This document shows, piece after piece, positions 3,222-23,027 of a stretch of DNA of 64,000 bases; within the stretch, counting starts at the first letter, position 1, and each line of letters starts with the position of its first letter. This DNA comes from Escherichia coli (lineage in GTDB: Bacteria > Pseudomonadota > Gammaproteobacteria > Enterobacterales > Enterobacteriaceae): NCBI RefSeq assembly GCF_003334385.1, contig NZ_QOWN01000016.1; one strand, 5' to 3'. The notes under the pieces are model-generated. The model worked only from the letters and a program-made list of their open reading frames with translations, was not told where the DNA came from and searched no databases. The translations under genes were made by a program, and so were the position numbers.

Positions 3222-3414
3222 GAACATCTCCCGTTGTCTTTTGTTTCCGTAGGGTGTTGGCTTCAGGCTCCATGCCTGCGGCTGATTATGCCACTATAAC
3301 CGTTAATTCCACAGAAGTGGAATCCCGACTGCATATCGCGTAGTGTAGAACGGCCTTTTTTTCGTCAACCGTGAACAACGGCGCACCGATTATTCAAGGA
3401 ATAACAATAAGATC

Positions 3415-4542
3415 ATGCAAAGCGTTACCCCAACATCGCAATACCTGAAGGCGCTTAATGAAGGCAGCCATCAACCCGACGACGTTCAAAAAGAGGCCGT
3501 CAGCCGCCTGGAAATTATTTATCAGGAACTCATCAATAGCACGCCACCAGCCCCCAGGACGAGTGGGCTAATGGCGCGGGTCGGTAAGCTGTGGGGTAAA
3601 CGCGAAGACATAAAGCATACGCCAGTGCGTGGCTTATATATGTGGGGCGGTGTAGGACGCGGGAAAACCTGGCTGATGGACCTTTTCTATCAAAGCCTGC
3701 CGGGAGAGCGGAAACAGCGCCTGCACTTTCACCGTTTTATGCTGCGGGTGCATGAAGAGCTAACTGCCTTACAGGGGCAGACCGATCCGCTGGAAATTAT
3801 TGCCGATCGCTTTAAAGCCGAAACTGACGTGCTCTGTTTTGACGAATTTTTTGTTTCTGATATTACCGATGCCATGCTACTTGGCGGTCTGATGAAAGCC
3901 CTGTTCGCTCGCGGTATTACCCTGGTAGCGACGTCAAATATTCCGCCGGATGAACTTTATCGAAATGGCCTGCAACGTGCGCGTTTTCTGCCTGCAATCG
4001 ATGCCATTAAACAGCATTGTGATGTAATGAACGTGGACGCTGGTGTTGATTATCGTCTGCGTACACTCACTCAGGCGCATCTGTGGCTTTCGCCACTTCA
4101 CGATGAAACCCGGGCGCAAATGGATAAACTATGGTTGGCGCTGGCGGGGGGGAAACGAGAAAATTCACCGACGTTAGAAATCAACCATCGGCCATTAGCA
4201 ACAATGGGCGTCGAGAACCAGACGCTGGCGGTCTCTTTTACTACGCTGTGCGTCGACGCCCGCAGTCAGCATGACTATATTGCGCTCTCACGTCTCTTTC
4301 ATACGGTCATGTTGTTTGATGTACCAGTTATGACGCGGTTGATGGAGAGCGAAGCGCGGCGCTTTATTGCGCTGGTGGATGAGTTTTACGAGCGCCATGT
4401 CAAATTAGTGGTGAGTGCAGAAGTGCCGCTGTATGAAATTTATCAGGGCGATCGGCTGAAGTTTGAGTTCCAGCGTTGCCTGTCACGTCTGCAAGAGATG
4501 CAAAGCGAAGAGTATCTGAAGCGCGAGCATTTGGCGGGTTAA
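3415..4542 (+). CDS. zapE: cell division ATPase ZapE (YhcM), AFG1-like
   Basis: 375-aa ORF; Walker A GGVGRGKT; conserved position upstream of rplM. Confidence 0.9.
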   Translation: MQSVTPTSQYLKALNEGSHQPDDVQKEAVSRLEIIYQELINSTPPAPRTSGLMARVGKLWGKREDIKHTPVRGLYMWGGVGRGKTWLMDLFYQSLPGERKQRLHFHRFMLRVHEELTALQGQTDPLEIIADRFKAETDVLCFDEFFVSDITDAMLLGGLMKALFARGITLVATSNIPPDELYRNGLQRARFLPAIDAIKQHCDVMNVDAGVDYRLRTLTQAHLWLSPLHDETRAQMDKLWLALAGGKRENSPTLEINHRPLATMGVENQTLAVSFTTLCVDARSQHDYIALSRLFHTVMLFDVPVMTRLMESEARRFIALVDEFYERHVKLVVSAEVPLYEIYQGDRLKFEFQRCLSRLQEMQSEEYLKREHLAG

Positions 4543-4673
4543 AACCTGTCACAAATCACAAAAAGGGGTCGATCTTTGACCCCGACTTCTCTATAATCCT
4601 GCGACCCCACGTTACAAGAAAGTTTTTTTCCCAAAACTTTTTGTGTGCTGGCATAGGCTATTCGAAGGGGTAG

Positions 4674-5189
<516 letters not shown>

Positions 5190-5201
5190 TCGGGATTATA
5201 G

Positions 5202-5597
<396 letters not shown>

Positions 5598-14416: not shown

Positions 14417-14444
14417 GATTCTGCAGACACTGTCTGCAGAATTC
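14417..14444. repeat. 28-bp near-perfect palindrome (solo copy) between convergent yhcH and yhcG
   Basis: GATTCTGCAGACACTGTCTGCAGAATTC; 19 bp after yhcH stop and 13 bp before yhcG stop codon; same family as the copies inside yhcG and after gltD. Confidence 0.8.
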
Positions 14445-14457
14445 GAAACCGCTGAAA

Positions 14458-15585
14458 TTAACGGCGTCTATAGCCTTCCTCTAGCACCGCCTGTGTTCGA
14501 ACGAGTTCATCTGCGAGTCGTTTCTCATCAGGTAGTTGCATCTTATATTCGCTTGCCAGAACGGTGTTAGGCAAACCTGCCAGAGCATAATGCGCTTCTC
14601 CGGCTCCTTTCTCTGCACAGAGAACCAGACCGATGGGCGGATTTTCATCCGGTAGCGTCCAGTGCTCTTTGGCGTAGTTGAGATACATATTCATCTGTCC
14701 GGCATCGCTATAGCTGAATTTGCCCACTTTTAGATCGACGATTAGCAGGCAGCGTAAACGGCGGTGGAAAAACAGCAGATCGACACGAAACCAGTTGTCA
14801 TCAATGCGTAACCTTCGCTGCCGACCAACAAAGGCAAAATCATCCCCAAGTTCCAGCATGAAATCCATCAGGTGGTTGATCAGCGCCTCCTCAAAATCGG
14901 ATTCTGAATATTCATCTTTCAATTCCAGAAATTCGAGCACAAAGGGATCGCGTATCGCCTGTTGCGGAAGAATATGCGTCTCGGCAGGAGCGTGTTGTTG
15001 CAGCATGGCTGATTTGTCATGTGACAGTAGTGTCCGCTCATAAAACTGGGTCGCAATTTGCCGCTCTAGCTGGCGAACAGACCAGCCACAGCGGAGCGTC
15101 TCTTTTTCATAAAAGCTGCGGGCGTCAGCGTTTTTAACGGAAAGTAAACGGACGTAGGTGGACCTGGGCAAGGGGAAAGATTTGGCAGACAGCGTCTGCC
15201 AAATCTTTGCCGATGGGAATTCTGCAGACGGTGTCTGCGGAATTCCCAATGGTGTTAATTCGCCAGACATTGTCTGGCGAATTTCAACATGTTGAAAAAA
15301 GAGGTAAAAAAGCCTCATTTGGCGTAAGTTTTTTGCAGAGAACCCACGCTTATACCTTAGACATAAATCCTTTGATAGTCGCTTGATTAGCTGCGCACCA
15401 TACGCAGCCCTGGCCTCGCCACCTTGTTCAAATTCGACAATTCGTCGGCCAATTTCCTGGTACGTCGCGGTCATTAACGCGTTAACGCTACGTACCGTTT
15501 CCGTCCGGGCGCTATCGACCAGATGAATAATACCGTCGTGGATTTGCTGGTAGCCTGCTGTGGTTCCTTCTGAGAGCGATTCCAT
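14458..15585 (-). CDS. yhcG: DUF1016-family protein with PD-(D/E)xK nuclease-like C-terminal domain
   Basis: 375-aa ORF; C-terminal ...RVDLLFF...LLIVDLKVGK resembles a D...(D/E)xK nuclease core; contains in-frame palindromic repeats. Confidence 0.85.
   Translation of the reverse strand: MESLSEGTTAGYQQIHDGIIHLVDSARTETVRSVNALMTATYQEIGRRIVEFEQGGEARAAYGAQLIKRLSKDLCLRYKRGFSAKNLRQMRLFYLFFQHVEIRQTMSGELTPLGIPQTPSAEFPSAKIWQTLSAKSFPLPRSTYVRLLSVKNADARSFYEKETLRCGWSVRQLERQIATQFYERTLLSHDKSAMLQQHAPAETHILPQQAIRDPFVLEFLELKDEYSESDFEEALINHLMDFMLELGDDFAFVGRQRRLRIDDNWFRVDLLFFHRRLRCLLIVDLKVGKFSYSDAGQMNMYLNYAKEHWTLPDENPPIGLVLCAEKGAGEAHYALAGLPNTVLASEYKMQLPDEKRLADELVRTQAVLEEGYRRR
15180..15283. repeat. three tandem 39-bp units, each with a ~25-33-bp palindrome, in frame within yhcG
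   Basis: ATTTGGCAGACAGCGTCTGCCAAAT (15180-15204), GGGAATTCTGCAGACGGTGTCTGCGGAATTCCC (15215-15247), AATTCGCCAGACATTGTCTGGCGAATT (15257-15283); encode IWQTLSAK / IPQTPSAE / IRQTMSGE on the minus strand. Confidence 0.85.
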
Positions 15586-15769: not shown

Positions 15770-16486
15770 TCACAAGTAGACTACGCTTATCACAGCTTTC
15801 CCATCAAGTTCGATTTTTTCTGAACCGCCTAAATCATTCGCGATAGATGCGCTCACCTGAAGCGGTATAATGGCGTTCGTTACAGGAGTTGGGGTTGTTT
15901 CACCTGGTTTTACAAAGGTGTAATAATAGCTTTGATCGACTGCAAGCGGATAAGCGGTGAGCGTTTGCCATGCTCTTTTTTGCCCTGTTATGACGGCATC
16001 TGCACCTGCTATTGATACAGCTAACGTCTGGCTACCATTGCTGGCACTAATGTTGTTGCTATCAATTAACACGGCATAACTACCGATATTTTTATTATCT
16101 TTTGTTTTCCCTAAGCCGAATAAGCGCGTTGTCTGGCTAATATAACCTCCGCCATTTAAGGTATATTTTACACCACTCTGACCCCCACTATCTTTTCCGG
16201 TGGTCATACTATCCATTCGTGTATCACGAGCGGTAATCGCAATGCTGGTAGCGGATTCGCAAGTTATAGTCATATTAATATTACGTGTTCCAATCTGTGT
16301 GTAGTGCTGCGTTGAAAGTCTATTGACTGAATGACTACCGAAGTTAACAACTCCGCCGTTGCTTAGTATTGGAGTACAAGCTGCAGCTTCCAGAGTCACC
16401 TTAACGTCAATTGATACTCTATCAGCGGCTTGCGCTGACATGGCAAAAAAGGCACTTCCGGCAATCAGTAATTTTACATTGTTCAT
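15770..16486 (-). CDS. yhcF: fimbrial-like protein (DUF1120 family), secreted
   Basis: 238-aa ORF with signal peptide MNNVKLLIAGSAFFAMSAQA; paralogous to GltF; last gene of the chaperone-usher cluster. Confidence 0.8.
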   Translation of the reverse strand: MNNVKLLIAGSAFFAMSAQAADRVSIDVKVTLEAAACTPILSNGGVVNFGSHSVNRLSTQHYTQIGTRNINMTITCESATSIAITARDTRMDSMTTGKDSGGQSGVKYTLNGGGYISQTTRLFGLGKTKDNKNIGSYAVLIDSNNISASNGSQTLAVSIAGADAVITGQKRAWQTLTAYPLAVDQSYYYTFVKPGETTPTPVTNAIIPLQVSASIANDLGGSEKIELDGKAVISVVYL

Positions 16487-17034
16487 TTTGCCTCCACCAG
16501 GACCGTCAGATTGCCTGTAATATCTGTCATGTCGGTTAGTTCCCCTTCATCCTTAAAAGCTGGAGCCATTGTCAGTGTGAGGCTAACGCTTTTACCGCTA
16601 TCAATTACCACTTCTTGACCATTTTGCATAAACACCAGCCAATTATTGGGGGAAGTACTAATTGATGCTGTTCCTGTGCTGCCCGGATTGTCATTTTTGC
16701 CACTGGCTAACGCCAGGTCGAGATTGTTACTACCTGAAAATGCATCGCTGGCGATCAGATTTAATGAACCATTCGGGCCAAATCCAAATCCGTTGTTGGA
16801 AATATTAGCGGTATTCAACTGAACACGAATATGAGCGTCCTGATCGCATTGCATTACCAGCGTGATTGTTCTGTCTGCTAATTGTGTTGTTTTACCCCGG
16901 TCAACTTGGCGCATGGCAGCACTTCGTTTGCCATAGTCGATATTTTGTATGCTACTGGAGATATTACACTCTGCCTGAGCGGCCATGGCGAAGTTCAGCA
17001 GCAGGCATCCTGTTATTATCCGTTTCATTGGCAC
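16483..17034 (-). CDS. yhcE: fimbrial-like secreted protein, apparently intact
   Basis: 183-aa ORF with signal peptide (..LLLNFAMAAQA); overlaps yhcD stop and yhcF start; no IS sequence present. Confidence 0.75.
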   Translation of the reverse strand: MPMKRIITGCLLLNFAMAAQAECNISSSIQNIDYGKRSAAMRQVDRGKTTQLADRTITLVMQCDQDAHIRVQLNTANISNNGFGFGPNGSLNLIASDAFSGSNNLDLALASGKNDNPGSTGTASISTSPNNWLVFMQNGQEVVIDSGKSVSLTLTMAPAFKDEGELTDMTDITGNLTVLVEAK

Positions 17035-19406
17035 TCTCCTGTTGCTGTCTCATAGAACACATCTTTTGGTGCATCTTCTGGGAATGTAAGGTGAATACGG
17101 CATGATTGCTGCTCATCTTTTATATCTAGCACCATGTCCGGTTTGATGTTATTGAGGAATACAACACCGTCATCCACTGATGTTGTCAGATAGTTGCCTT
17201 CACTATCTTCAATCGCAACGCCTCTGGGCAGTTTTTTGCCGTCGGAAAGTGTGATATTGAGTAATGCACGGCGTTGTGTTATCGCACTGAATCCGACTTT
17301 CCCTACTGCACCACGGCCTTGTTTGATCATTTTTGTGCCGTTACCGATATCGACATTTTTTGGCAAGCTGGCGGTATCGATCTCAACTCCTGATGTTCGC
17401 CACGACTGGATTGATGGAATGACGGCATTACCCCGAAAATCTGTCCATACTGGGCCTGCCTGAGATGTAATTCTGACACCTGCAATATTGTTATCCATTT
17501 TTGCGATGGCGAAAGTGTCATTGATAGTCCACGGTGAAAAGGTCACTCCCTGATCATGTACGGCAATACCACCTGACATCGTACCGTTGTAAGTACGGCT
17601 ATCACTGCCGCTTGCTCCTGCGGCAAGGCTGACTTGGGTGTAATGGAGATTGGAACTGATACTGCCGTTCAAGCTCGTTTCACGTTCGTCGTGATCTCGT
17701 TCAGCATTCACATAGTAGGACATCTCATCTGAGACGACTCCCATGACACCAGTACCATAGTGGGTTTTATGATCGTCATGGCGAGTATACAGTGTGGCGG
17801 TGTTTGATCTGCCAAATGGAATACTGATGTTGACGTAGAACAGATCACCATCGTCTTCATTATTTTCTGAAGCACTAAGTTGATGCTGCCAGTTGACGGA
17901 AACCGTGGCGTGTTTGAACGCTTTGTTCCAGTTAATATTAAGGTTGCTTGAGTCATTGTCACCGTCGTAACTATATGTTTTATAGCCACTGATGTTGAAA
18001 CCACCCAGAATGGAGTTAGACCAGTTTAAACCAAGCGCATAAGTGCTTTTAGTCGGATCGGTATAATCATCATCAATCGCTTCAGACAGTTCGCGATAAT
18101 GGCGATCAGATCGAGTGAGGCTGGTTGTTAGCCCAAGTGAAAATGGGAGATTGTAGTTCGCGTCAAGACGATATTTCTGTCCTTGCAGTGAGTCTTTCGT
18201 ATCCTGCGATGTACTAATTTGGCTGCTCACTGTTAAATCGGGCAGGGGAACCAGACTCGACCGGATTGATGCCGCCTGATAATTTTCTGCTACGATAACG
18301 CCGCCGTTCATTGCACTCCAGCGTGTCAGATTCCATCCGCTCGATGCACTAATTACCCAAGGTGATTCGTCATAGTCATCGTCTACCCGCCCTATCGCGA
18401 AGCGATAACCCTGGAAGCTTTCTACATGCTGATTAAACAGGGTGGAGGGAACAATATAGTTGTGCGAACTACCGTCTGTTTCGACAACGGTGACATTAAG
18501 ATCACTATTACCATTGCGAACAGGTACATCAGGGATAGTGAATGCGCCCGCAGGAACCAGAATGGAATGAATTAAAACTCCTTGTTGACGAATCTCGACA
18601 CGAGCCTGAGAGGTGTTGGCTATACCAGTAACTTGCACACCACTGCCGCTGGTTTGCAATGCGTTGTCCGGTGCGATTTCGATACCGTAAATACTGGCTC
18701 CTTCCAACACGCTATTATTGAGGTTAACTTCACCTGCTCGCATGAGTGTTTTAAGATCTGTAAAGGTACGTTGAAGGTAGGTTGACGAGTTCTGGTTACT
18801 GAATGTGCCATTTGTTTGTGTAAGGAACTGATGGCTGCGTAACATCCAGTCATTAATATTAATCCCGCCTTCAAGTGCAGCCTGGGAGTAGTCCGAACTC
18901 CCATTAGAAAATTCTGCACGGCTGCTCATCAGAGAGTAGTTTAGCAGCGCAGCTGTTCCACCAGTTGCTGCGTTTGTGAGATCCAACCCTATGGGAATGA
19001 TCGCCTGTGGTGAAACGATAATATCTAACGCTTCCTGGTTAGGTAATGGTGTGATTGTGGTACCCGGGTAGGACAATATATAGTCGTAACAGCCATTTTT
19101 TTCTTCAGAAGGAATTTTTAAACCGGCTTGTTGCAGAAATGCCTGATCAAGACAAATGTCGCCATTTTCATCAAAGCGCGTAGCAATGTTGCCTTTTTTT
19201 TCGCCATTTACTGATACTATCAGTGAATATTCACCTGGCAAAAAACGGGCTGAACGGGAAAAATAATGCGATATATTAGGATCTACACCTAGTGATTTTA
19301 ATGTTTCCCGATCAAAATCAACAGCGGCAATCTCTATACCATCTGCATTGGCTGGGGGAGAAAAGGCAAAACCAATGGTGTAGGCCAGTAACGTTTTTTT
19401 TAACAT
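17025..19406 (-). CDS. yhcD: fimbrial outer membrane usher protein
   Basis: ORF 17025..19424 (799 aa); likely start at MLKKTLLAYTIGFAFSPPANA (793 aa); usher-sized, between chaperone and subunit genes. Confidence 0.88.
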   Translation of the reverse strand: MLKKTLLAYTIGFAFSPPANADGIEIAAVDFDRETLKSLGVDPNISHYFSRSARFLPGEYSLIVSVNGEKKGNIATRFDENGDICLDQAFLQQAGLKIPSEEKNGCYDYILSYPGTTITPLPNQEALDIIVSPQAIIPIGLDLTNAATGGTAALLNYSLMSSRAEFSNGSSDYSQAALEGGININDWMLRSHQFLTQTNGTFSNQNSSTYLQRTFTDLKTLMRAGEVNLNNSVLEGASIYGIEIAPDNALQTSGSGVQVTGIANTSQARVEIRQQGVLIHSILVPAGAFTIPDVPVRNGNSDLNVTVVETDGSSHNYIVPSTLFNQHVESFQGYRFAIGRVDDDYDESPWVISASSGWNLTRWSAMNGGVIVAENYQAASIRSSLVPLPDLTVSSQISTSQDTKDSLQGQKYRLDANYNLPFSLGLTTSLTRSDRHYRELSEAIDDDYTDPTKSTYALGLNWSNSILGGFNISGYKTYSYDGDNDSSNLNINWNKAFKHATVSVNWQHQLSASENNEDDGDLFYVNISIPFGRSNTATLYTRHDDHKTHYGTGVMGVVSDEMSYYVNAERDHDERETSLNGSISSNLHYTQVSLAAGASGSDSRTYNGTMSGGIAVHDQGVTFSPWTINDTFAIAKMDNNIAGVRITSQAGPVWTDFRGNAVIPSIQSWRTSGVEIDTASLPKNVDIGNGTKMIKQGRGAVGKVGFSAITQRRALLNITLSDGKKLPRGVAIEDSEGNYLTTSVDDGVVFLNNIKPDMVLDIKDEQQSCRIHLTFPEDAPKDVFYETATGECQ

Positions 19407-19426
19407 CCTTGTCGCTCCAGGCAAAG

Positions 19427-20101
19427 TTATTTTAAGTCAGTGACATATTTATTACCGCGATAACCATATCGGCTGGCTGGGTAAAACTCGACTTTTGTAT
19501 CCGTAGCGTTTGTTAATGCAGTAGTTGTACTGGTGTGTGGTAGAAAATAGGTCTTATTTATAGCCCCCGTTTTTCCTGAAGGGAGCGTTTTAAATTGTAA
19601 GGTCATACGAACGACATAATTACTGGGGTTGCTAATCTCAATTTGGTCGCCATTTTTACGCCATTCCAGGAATTTCCAGGTCTCTCGCTCTTCCGGCAGG
19701 GAAGCCGGGTGGATCAGTACAGGTAGATCCTGACGAATTGAAACAGTAACTCTGCTGCTCTTGTCATCTTTTGGTGGAATACCTTCGAACGTTACGCGTT
19801 TCAGCTCTTCTGATTGCAGAGGAACAGTCGCCTGAAGTAAAAATCGAACCTGTTGTACTTGACCGGCTTCAACACGAATAACGGGCTGAGTCGGGATTAA
19901 ACGAATTGATTTATTGCTTTCAGGCAAATCAACAATGGTGGTGTAAAGCAATGAAGGATGATCATCTGTATTCTTAATATTAATACTAGCTTCACCACGC
20001 TTTTCATCAACCAGCAATACTGATGTTTCAGGAACCATCCCTGTGGCTAAGGTATTCATTGATGTTGTTATAAATACAGTGAATGTAATGTGTCTGAGCA
20101 T
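19427..20101 (-). CDS. yhcA: fimbrial periplasmic chaperone (PapD-like)
   Basis: 224-aa ORF with signal peptide; 2 bp upstream of usher gene. Confidence 0.88.
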   Translation of the reverse strand: MLRHITFTVFITTSMNTLATGMVPETSVLLVDEKRGEASINIKNTDDHPSLLYTTIVDLPESNKSIRLIPTQPVIRVEAGQVQQVRFLLQATVPLQSEELKRVTFEGIPPKDDKSSRVTVSIRQDLPVLIHPASLPEERETWKFLEWRKNGDQIEISNPSNYVVRMTLQFKTLPSGKTGAINKTYFLPHTSTTTALTNATDTKVEFYPASRYGYRGNKYVTDLK

Positions 20102-20272
20102 TTAAATTAAAACTCCTGTAATAATGATAAATAACGCAGAAACATATTGTTAATATATGTTATGCACTGTTTGCGATGAGATTGATTAAGACAGACCATG
20201 TCATAGGGCATAATCTGTCCGAGTTATAGCTAACTGGTTAATGCGTAAAAATAAAAACTGTATTACAAGTTC

Positions 20273-21037
20273 TTATAAATACTGAACGCTGATAGTGACG
20301 TTACCATCCAGTTTGATCGTTTCATCAGAACCAAGAATAGTATTGTCATTTACCGCAGCATCAATCAGTAACGGGAAGGTGACCGCTGTAATGGCAACAG
20401 GTGTCAGTTCCCCTGTTTTTGCAACAGAATAACCGCGCTCGATTGCTGAGCAACTTGTCAGCGAGCAGAATGCGCCATTAGATGAGGCTTTCCATGTGGG
20501 GGTCGCTGCTGACCAGTGGTCAGTTTGAATCAGGTCGACAGGAATTTCACCTGTATCGTCCGCCGCGTGAATCCCACCATTAGACCTGTCAATACCAATG
20601 GATGCAGCGCCAATTTTTTGTCCATTAGGCGCAGAACCTAAACCAAAGGCGTTTTTCGTTCCCTTCATATCTACGAGAGTATCATAAGCTTTTTCAATAT
20701 AGGATGTGTCGTTTAACGCTACAATGGTCGACTGACGGTTATCCTTGGAGGTTACAGCAATTAGCGTTGGTGCTGTGCAGGTTATATTTAATGTGCTGTT
20801 TTTGCGGCCCAGTTGAACCAGTTTATTACTTTTACCGGTCGGATTCAGCGCACTGTTATGATGTTTCCCATAGTCAACAATGCCGCCGCCCGTAACAACT
20901 GGGGTACATGCACCAGGGGTATACTCGCCGATGATAGTTAATTCTGTATCAGTTGAATCTGTTGCCATGGCACTGAATGCTGCAACAGAAAGTGCTGCAC
21001 AAATAGCAGCTGTTGTGAGGTTCTTTTTGAAAAACAT
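20273..21037 (-). CDS. gltF: GltF, periplasmic fimbrial-subunit-like protein (DUF1120)
   Basis: 254-aa ORF with signal peptide MFFKKNLTTAAICAALSVAAFSAMA; paralogous to YhcF; first gene of the chaperone-usher cluster. Confidence 0.85.
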   Translation of the reverse strand: MFFKKNLTTAAICAALSVAAFSAMATDSTDTELTIIGEYTPGACTPVVTGGGIVDYGKHHNSALNPTGKSNKLVQLGRKNSTLNITCTAPTLIAVTSKDNRQSTIVALNDTSYIEKAYDTLVDMKGTKNAFGLGSAPNGQKIGAASIGIDRSNGGIHAADDTGEIPVDLIQTDHWSAATPTWKASSNGAFCSLTSCSAIERGYSVAKTGELTPVAITAVTFPLLIDAAVNDNTILGSDETIKLDGNVTISVQYL

Positions 21038-21555
21038 ATGAACATATCCTTAATAACAAATTTATTTTTTAAAATAAAAAGCTGAAGCAGTATATATATC
21101 TGTTTGTGAATGTAAATAAATAACTCGTTCAGAAATAGCCAACTTGCTGGGATGTATTTATTTAATGAATTTTATAGTTACGATCATGTGAATAATAAGG
21201 TGCTGGTGAGGTGGTTTGTGGTGATAATTATTCATTACATGAATGTTTGCGCTGAAAAATAGGAAAATATATAGATAATTAAGGATAATATATTGGTTTT
21301 TTATATTCATATTTTGTATATTAATATCGAGACAATTTACATGGAATGAAAAGACTGAATAGCTTGCAGAATCGGTATTGTCAGAGGTGTTAACAAGTAA
21401 TTGAGACGGATTGTAAATGAGAAATTGCTTGATGTGCTTCACTCATCAGACTTGGTGAACAAAGCACAATTTATTGAAAATTATCCCTATTATAGGAAAG
21501 GTCAAACGCTCATGCCGCATTTGCCAGAAAACAACGCGCACTTCGTCAGTAATTT

Positions 21556-21583
21556 GATTCGCCAGACACAGTCTGGCGAATTC
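21556..21583. repeat. 28-bp near-perfect palindrome (solo copy) immediately 3' of gltD
   Basis: GATTCGCCAGACACAGTCTGGCGAATTC; ends 13 bp before the gltD stop codon at 21597 (i.e. just downstream on the gltD strand). Confidence 0.8.
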
Positions 21584-21596
21584 ATTGTTACCTCGC

Positions 21597-23027
<1,431 letters not shown>

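Follow-up and report, generated by a model that had tools for sequence, protein, structure and literature searches.

Three in-frame palindromes in Escherichia coli yhcG as probable copies of an ancient coding palindrome of the DUF1016/YhcG family

The stretch of DNA analysed here (the window) is 64,000 nucleotides of an Escherichia coli genome, contig NZ_QOWN01000016.1 of assembly GCF_003334385.1, and carries on its minus strand yhcG, the gene of a nuclease-domain protein of the DUF1016/YhcG family. Inside the yhcG coding sequence (CDS) lie three near-perfect palindromes, spanning 15173-15283, 39 bp apart and in frame, and two further copies of the palindrome lie outside the gene (Table 1). 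A preliminary description, made from the sequence alone, had recorded both features, and both proved to be real: the sequence itself, a repeat finder, which grouped the three units as its family D1 (15179-15205, 15218-15244 and 15257-15283; spacing 39 and 39), and a palindrome scan, which centred them at 15192, 15231 and 15270, agree. Read in frame, the units encode the peptides IRQTMSGEL, IPQTPSAEF and IWQTLSAKS. The 64-kb window contains their core, CAGACNNNGTCTG, five times, where 0.08 occurrences would be expected; none of 100 shuffled sequences reached five.

Table 1. Positions of yhcG and of the palindromes in the window
Feature	Position	Strand	Description
yhcG CDS	14458-15585	minus	375 aa; in the list of open reading frames; RefSeq 'yhcG: PDDEXK nuclease domain-containing protein'
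Palindrome unit 1 (first in gene order)	15257-15283	minus	AATTCGCCAGAC-A-T-T-GTCTGGCGAATT; 13-nt arms, perfect; codes (E)IRQTMSGEL
Palindrome unit 2	15214-15248	minus	TGGGAATTCTGCAGAC-GGT-GTCTGCGGAATTCCCA; 16-nt arms, 1 mismatch; codes LGIPQTPSAEFP
Palindrome unit 3	15173-15211	minus	GGGAAAGATTTGGCAGAC-AGC-GTCTGCCAAATCTTTGCC; 18-nt arms, 1 mismatch; codes (A)KIWQTLSAKSFP
Bare palindrome	14417-14443		GATTCTGCAGAC-ACT-GTCTGCAGAATT; 15 nt after the yhcG stop, between the convergent nanQ and yhcG; no T tract
Bare palindrome	21556-21582		GATTCGCCAGAC-ACA-GTCTGGCGAATT; 15 nt past the gltD stop, where the yhc fimbrial island borders on gltD

Unit 1 occupies the position that is kept palindromic in the single-copy orthologues of Salmonella, Citrobacter and Kluyvera, as judged from the orthologue alignment and the palindromes of each locus, and unit 3 adjoins the conserved LPW(S)xY motif. 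The 131-nt stretch that holds the units folds, when single-stranded, into three hairpins (DNA, -45.4 kcal/mol, z = -12.3); the RNA fold, a check proposed in the preliminary description, likewise gives three hairpins (-67.6 kcal/mol, z = -11.4). Standard searches do not place the units in a known class. Tandem Repeats Finder reported no array at this position because the units are only ~70-78% alike. A search for intrinsic terminators, defined by a G+C-rich hairpin followed by a T tract, listed none of the palindromes of the window: the sequences that follow the stems (CTTTGCC, CAATGG, TCAACA, CGAAAC) include no T tract. Rfam returned nothing at its gathering threshold, the best score, 23.6 bits against a gathering score of 80, coming from a microRNA model that matched as a generic hairpin.

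We hold with high confidence that the three 39-bp units are a lineage-specific triplication of an ancient coding DNA palindrome, present in almost all sampled genes of the DUF1016/YhcG family in the same codon phase and selected at the level of nucleotides. The family survey behind this conclusion used homologues retrieved by peptide patterns placed well away from the repeats or unrelated to the palindrome. It comprised three samples: 80 loci from one-genome-per-species contigs, 53-98% identical and drawn from Enterobacteriaceae, Burkholderiaceae, Actinomycetota, Acidobacteriota, Planctomycetota, Verrucomicrobiota, Cyanobacteriota, Chloroflexota and Bacteroidota; 14 plasmid genes, 28-40% identical; and 80 viral contigs. 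In each gene a linker window of ~111 nt (11% of the gene), longer in the YhcG-like subfamily, was placed by the alignment columns that bracket it. The strongest palindrome of the whole gene fell in this linker in 140 of 159 homologues, tied with another in 12 and was weaker than one elsewhere in 7, over an identity range of 28-98% and more than 10 phyla as well as phage contigs. The median number of paired bases was 12 in the linker and 8 elsewhere in the gene; in flanking DNA, palindromes with 10 or more paired bases occur once in 7.8 kb. The position is equally regular: in 138 of 145 cases the palindrome is centred on the first position of a codon, and in canonical members 18 nt separate this centre from the Trp codon downstream, the Trp being the nearly invariant one of the 'LxW(S/G/T)H' motif. 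One central base is flanked by arms of ~11-13 bp, which can reach 17 bp. The preliminary description had allowed that distant orthologues might share the repeat without DNA palindromy, or that the motif might be no commoner than chance predicts; distant orthologues are in fact palindromic, and locally the motif is far above chance. Since the DUF1016/YhcG family numbers 58,029 clusters at 50% identity (E <= 0.001), the feature must be widespread.

Two observations on the spread of the family belong here. YhcG-like proteins of Enterobacteriaceae, Burkholderiaceae, Actinomycetota, Acidobacteriota, Planctomycetota, Verrucomicrobiota and Cyanobacteriota (loci L016-L084) are 53-65% identical, which, being far above the expectation for vertical descent, implies extensive horizontal transfer. 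The distant plasmid members (L085, L087, L088, L092, L215) are found within Type I restriction-modification (R-M) operons between hsdM, hsdS and hsdR, within a CRISPR-cas locus of type I-D, and with BREX pglX on one side and a Shedu nuclease gene on the other; overlaps of 4 nt with the adjacent genes are common.

That the constraint acts on nucleotides follows from how the arms have changed. Among 101 distinct sequences 94.7% of cells are paired, all 11 arm pairs have changed on both sides, and compensatory cells number 255, where shuffles have 61; covariation scores 0.634, compared with 0.128 for shuffles and 0.04-0.14 for controls slid along the sequence. Cores as different as CAGAC/GTCTG, GGAATC/GATTCC, GTATC/GATAC, CCAAC/GTTGG and GCCCGAC/GTCGGGC occur, and the peptides vary with them (IxQTxSxE, ILESAIPES, IVVSLIREL, IVQQAVGQL, EICPTPSGK). 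When codons were resampled synonymously, keeping each peptide and the codon usage of its own gene, 5.9 of 12 pairs formed against the 10.9 observed, with p <= 0.01 in 133 of 143 genes; the nucleic-acid constraint beyond the protein that the preliminary description had surmised is thereby supported. Codon bias gives way as well: in all 51 genes whose G+C content at third codon positions (GC3) is 0.70 or more, the nine codons of the palindrome are lower in GC3 (0.46 against 0.79), so the palindrome overrides it. The palindrome is kept by selection on nucleotides, and I-x-Q-T-x-S-(A/G)-(E/K/Q) is what a palindrome in that frame encodes, the I-x-Q-T-x-S peptide being a by-product. Covariation, resampling and codon bias together identify the family motif that precedes 'LPWGH/LSWSH' as a translated palindrome.

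The copies outside yhcG share with it only the 25-29-nt palindrome; their flanks have neither homology to yhcG nor a DUF1016 profile signal. We therefore rejected the possibility that they are relics of yhcG-like gene fragments. The post-stop copy is present at the Escherichia loci L005, L006, L015 and L021, its arms being those of the in-gene unit of the same strain. The gltD-side copy is absent from strains that do not have the yhc fimbrial island, in which yhcG lies ~184 bp from gltD. Many E. coli strains lack this fimbrial cluster (window 15770-21400), which is an insertion by comparison with them, as loci L003 and L004 indicate: there the ~184 bp separate the yhcG start from the gltD stop, and a different G+C-rich inverted repeat follows gltD in the island-less strains. 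A 72-aa open reading frame (ORF; 21401-21619, plus strand) crosses the gltD-side palindrome and so contains 'IRQTQSGEF', with no DUF1016 profile signal; since the palindrome reads alike on both strands, this peptide is not evidence of a gene.

Gene-end copies whose arms match the in-gene unit recur in at least four unrelated lineages: after the stop codon in Escherichia, abutting it in L167, 12 nt beyond it in L060, and in L148, where the extra copy lies between a promoter-like site and the ribosome-binding site. Among all the viral contigs the YhcG-type pattern ATTNNNCAGACNNNGTCTGNNNAAT has 41 exact matches, 24 of them in or beside DUF1016 genes. The other 17 have no DUF1016 gene within 1.3 kb; 11 of these are perfect 25-nt palindromes, mostly intergenic. 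Such DUF1016-free matches occur in L175, L181, L183, L189, L190, L195, L197-L200, L203 and L206; L195 has two palindromes side by side, 23 nt apart, and at three DUF1016-free loci the arms are identical to the Burkholderia in-gene type.

Variation within E. coli was followed in 5,426 complete genomes, ~4,470 of which carry the yhcG locus. The commonest cluster is the three-unit allele of 375 aa. Two units are found either in 370-aa alleles, with 36-nt spacing and a decayed third unit, or in the K-12-like locus L005, where a 39-nt deletion has removed unit 2; one unit remains in a 349-aa allele with a 78-nt in-frame deletion, and in O157 an 80-nt deletion shifts the frame. Unit number thus differs among strains, as the preliminary description had suspected, and yhcG qualifies as a variable-number tandem repeat; this label says how the E. 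coli triplet behaves and nothing about where the palindrome came from. Across the whole family survey, 30 of 150 distinct genes have at least two copies, spaced by 39 nt in 20 of 32 intervals and otherwise by 30-105 nt. Because the protein stretch tolerates insertions, in-frame duplications recur, usually with the 39-nt period, and amplification followed by decay or loss of the extra copies yields the one-, two- and three-unit alleles; the K-12 triplet is thus one case of recurrent in-frame amplification.

The palindromes also mark where the gene breaks. E. coli alleles are mosaic around them. In 711-726 genomes a unique 471-bp segment stands in place of the C-terminal two-thirds of yhcG and the post-stop palindrome, and the truncation junction is the exact outer edge of unit 3. 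The segment (L001, 2030-2500, of E. coli strain 64; strains of the B lineage are among the carriers) codes for a 101-aa protein annotated 'transposase', which has no match in Pfam or NCBIfam and is present as a single copy in the genome; an active insertion sequence (IS) as the explanation of the junction was rejected on these grounds. In strain L73 (locus L002) an IS1 is inserted within unit 3. It is followed (3301-5374) by a fragment of a MobH relaxase gene and a second IS1, the remainder of yhcG and the fimbrial genes being deleted and the gltD-side palindrome kept. A programmed-inversion switch of the shufflon type was also considered and rejected: the junction predicted for inversion between the post-stop and in-gene copies is found in none of the 5,426 genomes. 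Elsewhere in the family, 4 or 5 of 14 split genes break at the palindrome (profile positions 92-109), and many PADLOC models and family proteins (for example P0248, P0249 and P0267) are fragments that end or start there, at residues ~100-115. Genes may often be truly disrupted at the hairpin, or else assembly or gene calling may err there.

The YhcG protein comprises a helical N-terminal domain (Pfam PF17761, DUF1016_N; residues 19-184, E 1.3e-36) and a PD-(D/E)XK nuclease domain (PF06250, YhcG_C; 208-360, E 1.6e-56). The DUF1016_N match spreads 166 residues of YhcG over 136 model positions, the surplus corresponding to the extra repeat units. YhcG also matches the PADLOC candidate single-gene phage defence PDC-S02 (PDLC04807, E 2.8e-131, residues 9-370); the literature searched on PDC-S02 and DUF1016 gives candidate-defence status only and reports no functional tests. 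NCBIfam has no YhcG model, and a sequence search detected no solved structure of a relative. In the AlphaFold2 model (mean pLDDT, the predicted local distance difference test, 82) units 1 and 2 form low-confidence coil at residues ~97-125 and unit 3 a short predicted helix, residues 126-136, before the conserved LPW(S)xY. Foldseek matched the nuclease domain only, best to NucS/EndoMS (2vld, 5gke) and also to Can2 and Bax1, in agreement with an older profile analysis that related YhcG_C to DUF91, YraN and archaeal Holliday-junction resolvases (PMC1189080). At residue 141 (codon within window 15150-15170) the K-12-type allele, the commonest E. coli cluster, has Arg (FPLPRSTY), whereas the 370-aa E. 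coli alleles, Salmonella, Citrobacter and others have the Trp that is nearly invariant in the family (FPLPWSTY); the laboratory K-12-type YhcG may consequently be functionally impaired.

As to what the palindrome does, the mechanism we place ahead of the others, as a possibility rather than a probability, is that it serves in cis as a structured DNA element, either hairpin or cruciform, which the protein encoded by the gene itself would recognise; this protein is probably a dimeric PD-(D/E)XK nuclease, with a catalytic domain closest to NucS/EndoMS and the archaeal Holliday-junction resolvases. Were the nuclease to bind or cut there, at this self-site, autoregulation or self-targeted breakage would result. 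Such action would account for the matching bare copies at gene ends, for rearrangement breakpoints at the outer edge of the palindrome, which would be the base of a cruciform, and for the hot spot of copy-number change, IS insertion and gene disruption. The resolvase-like catalytic domain, the gene-end copies and the breakpoints point jointly to a structured DNA site, for which the matching factor is most simply the gene's own nuclease. The cruciform or protein-binding site entertained in the preliminary description stays the best reading, as a putative site. Ancient palindrome and self-site mechanism taken together are the best explanation we can offer as a whole, at rather less than even confidence.

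With slightly more reserve than for the mechanism itself, DUF1016/YhcG genes might be viewed as a new class of 'self-site' elements: each would carry, within its own ORF, the putative structured target (hairpin or cruciform) of its own nuclease, whose action would regulate the gene, break and rejoin DNA, seed bare copies at the ends of the gene, amplify the unit, and capture or exchange modules of defence islands. In phage contigs L210 (4704-6240) and L113 (91-2478) a cassette of two genes, with products of 176-190 aa and 126 aa, lies between 179-nt direct repeats of 94% identity, which begin ~5 nt before the palindrome GTCAGAC-ACT-GTCTGAC and contain a second DUF1016-type palindrome and a short DUF1016 remnant. 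The cassette looks like a toxin-antitoxin pair. The right-hand partner in L113 is an intact DUF1016 gene; the neighbours in L210 are a tyrosine integrase gene and a PD-(D/E)XK/AAA-like gene.

Several points weigh against the explanation just given. We infer both the binding or cutting of the palindrome by YhcG and the formation of a cruciform or hairpin in vivo, and arms of 12 bp come close to the minimum that extrusion requires. The palindrome is not indispensable, since 17 of 150 distinct genes have none with at least 9 paired bases. The common K-12 allele with Arg for Trp (LPRSTY for LPWSTY) retains all three units, and the inversion that could join in-gene and post-stop copies is, as noted, absent from the genomes surveyed. 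Host processes alone, for instance SbcCD cleavage or replication slippage, could produce breakpoints at a palindrome. The post-stop copies and the copy in the 5' untranslated region (UTR) fit a model at the RNA level equally well, because all lie within the same transcript; and the argument for DNA over RNA, which follows, rests on ~80 mismatches.

The closest competitor, an unlikely one by our estimate, holds that the palindrome works as an mRNA hairpin, through ribosome pausing, through mRNA stability or processing, or as RNA bound or cleaved by the YhcG-family protein itself, the post-stop and 5' UTR copies being hairpins at transcript ends. The predicted RNA fold of the yhcG stretch is indeed very stable, all gene-adjacent matching copies stand at sites likely to be co-transcribed with the gene, and covariation alone does not separate RNA from DNA. 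The mismatches are more telling. Among 1560 arm pairs, 21 are G.T, no commoner than the 28 A.C, and 31 are of transversion type, and G-U cells make up ~0.6% of the covariation set. An RNA helix should accept G-U much more readily than A-C, and no such preference is seen. Pairing, moreover, extends to the central base: in the R-N-Y centre the bases on either side of it (+/-1) form Watson-Crick pairs in 56% of cases, where chance would give 25%, nearly all the others being transition mismatches, and this is needless for an RNA loop. Lack of G-U tolerance together with pairing up to the central base leads us to read the palindrome as a DNA-level dyad, and the constraint is probably on DNA rather than RNA; nor are the K-12 palindromes, which have no T tract, intrinsic terminators. 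Distinctly less probable is that the palindrome is a functionless fossil, an ancestral sequence in a tolerant stretch of protein whose arms intrastrand template switching would keep complementary. The perfecting of quasi-palindromes by such switching is a well-established mutational process, the subject reportedly of work by Ripley in 1982 and by the Lovett laboratory; the encoded peptide varies freely, K-12 units 1 and 2 fall in the coil of the predicted structure, and amplification and decay are frequent. In Burkholderiaceae, however, two copies lie 39 nt apart, the upstream one paired at 12 of 12 positions and the downstream (+39) one retaining, beside it, the same two transversion mismatches in many species; the E. 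coli 370-aa alleles resemble them in having a decayed spare copy. From these stable mismatches we conclude that arms are not automatically corrected, one perfect copy being maintained while the spare decays. The fossil reading is further opposed by the holding of one codon position down to 28% identity, against codon bias, and by the recurrence of matching gene-end copies in unrelated lineages.

Marginally less probable again is a recombination site of a separate enzyme (Xer-like, an integrase or an invertase), by which modules would be exchanged or captured at a boundary inside DUF1016 genes. Breakpoints at palindromes and the mosaic E. coli alleles would suit this, and DUF1016 genes often lie beside recombinases and in Type I R-M, BREX or CRISPR islands; they are enriched 17-fold beside targets of programmed inversion (PMC9881135). 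Yet no recombinase is consistently linked to them and none is present at the chromosomal E. coli locus, the E. coli genomes hold no inversion junction, and the sequence diverges freely between genes. The geometry does not fit either: the symmetry axis is a single base and 3 nt part the conserved cores, whereas tyrosine recombinases use spacers of 6-8 bp and serine recombinases a 2-bp crossover. Comparison with integron attC and Xer dif-like sites points both ways: a single central base faces a 6-8 bp spacer and the E. coli locus has no recombinase, yet one phage-contig cassette is flanked by palindrome-bearing repeats. The preliminary description had leaned to another origin, in which a small mobile palindromic element, resembling a repetitive extragenic palindrome (REP), a miniature inverted-repeat transposable element (MITE) or a Rickettsia palindromic element (RPE), invaded E. 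coli yhcG in frame, was duplicated and dispersed. Five copies in the window, two of them outside the gene and bare, and the 17 of 41 viral matches outside DUF1016 genes might seem to recommend it. But the palindrome holds the same codon position and phase in homologues of more than 10 phyla, at 28-98% identity, and so is ancestral to the family and predates E. coli; no unrelated gene in the window carries it; and a 39-nt probe finds 1-4 places per E. coli genome, all, among the matches listed, in yhcG or an unannotated stretch. We count a mobile-element origin of the in-gene copies as already refuted on this evidence and give it very little credence: of an invasion followed by duplication only the triplication survives, as a lineage-specific event, and instead of a dispersed DNA family there are local bare palindromes without flanking yhcG homology. 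K-12 carries three copies of an ancient family-wide palindrome and two local spin-offs. Least credible of all, to the point of being negligible, is a pure protein-level repeat in which palindromy is a coincidence of I-x-Q-T-x-S codons. The peptide motif is conserved in Enterobacteriaceae, but resampled synonymous codons fall far short of the observed pairing and palindromy is kept with very different peptides, such as ILESAIPES, IVNTRVHNL and NVPQPVGHL; covariation and resampling have already refuted this explanation.

Comparison with known systems brings out what is particular to the YhcG palindrome, each of the nearest analogues differing from it in an essential feature. REPs and the REP-associated tyrosine transposases (RAYTs) of REPtrons, features reportedly described by Nunvar in 2010 and Ton-Hoang in 2012, resemble the yhcG case in having short (~25-35 nt) hairpin palindromes specific to a nearby nuclease-type gene, flanking copies, and bare copies at new nearby sites. 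REPs, however, are extragenic and number tens to hundreds per genome, whereas the YhcG palindrome lies in the ORF, in frame, in 1-5 local copies, and RAYT is an HUH Y1 transposase whereas the YhcG-linked enzyme is a PD-(D/E)XK nuclease. Assignment to REPs or bacterial interspersed mosaic elements fails in that the main copies are intragenic and the places few, with no RAYT and no transposase family among the neighbouring ORFs. RPEs, whose in-frame occurrence Ogata is said to have described in 2000, are likewise palindromic DNA translated within a protein, in an insertion-tolerant segment; but they are 100-150 bp long and occur in many unrelated genes of one lineage, whereas the YhcG palindrome is ~25 bp, in one family, at a fixed position and phase across phyla. 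Its occurrence at the orthologous position in many phyla, and in no other gene of the window, sets it apart from RPE- or MITE-like elements. In mitochondrial genes of Nematomorpha (PMC6649704), perfect inverted repeats occur in CDSs with both arms translated, and are acknowledged to be rare; as described there they are up to 284 bp, numerous and spread over many genes of few species, not at one orthologous site across a gene family.

The controller-protein boxes (C-boxes) of R-M systems offer a nearer functional parallel, a dyad site tied to a potentially toxic nuclease gene, and the L148 copy is near a promoter-like site; C-boxes, though, are upstream, are bound by a separate controller protein and have conserved half-sites, while the YhcG site is intragenic. 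Positions that vary within one genome are still complementary between the arms of the YhcG palindrome, which an operator would not need, and this too separates it from C-boxes. The cruciform substrates of Holliday-junction resolvases compare with YhcG in arms of ~12-13 bp, much as in the classic palindromes that extrude, in breakpoints at the outer edge and in the domain like that of NucS and the archaeal resolvases, and quasi-palindrome hot spots in local slippage and copy-number change. We know of no resolvase or NucS gene that carries a conserved substrate in its own CDS.

Searches of the literature for yhcG, DUF1016, PDC-S02 and palindromes yielded fold predictions, context statistics and candidate-defence listings; the palindrome is not described in the literature searched. 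A DNA-level signal conserved within the CDS of a family of ~58,000 clusters, spanning many phyla, plasmids and phages, is rare. One 'conserved protein motif' of the family is a translated palindrome, and this affects how profile hidden Markov models, conservation scores and structure predictions are to be read there. The palindrome explains why these genes vary in length, shift frame, receive IS insertions and are split in gene calls at one and the same spot. The family itself is widespread but uncharacterised, a candidate anti-phage nuclease whose genes occur near Type I R-M, BREX, Shedu and CRISPR systems, and the palindrome is the first concrete testable handle on its recognition and control.

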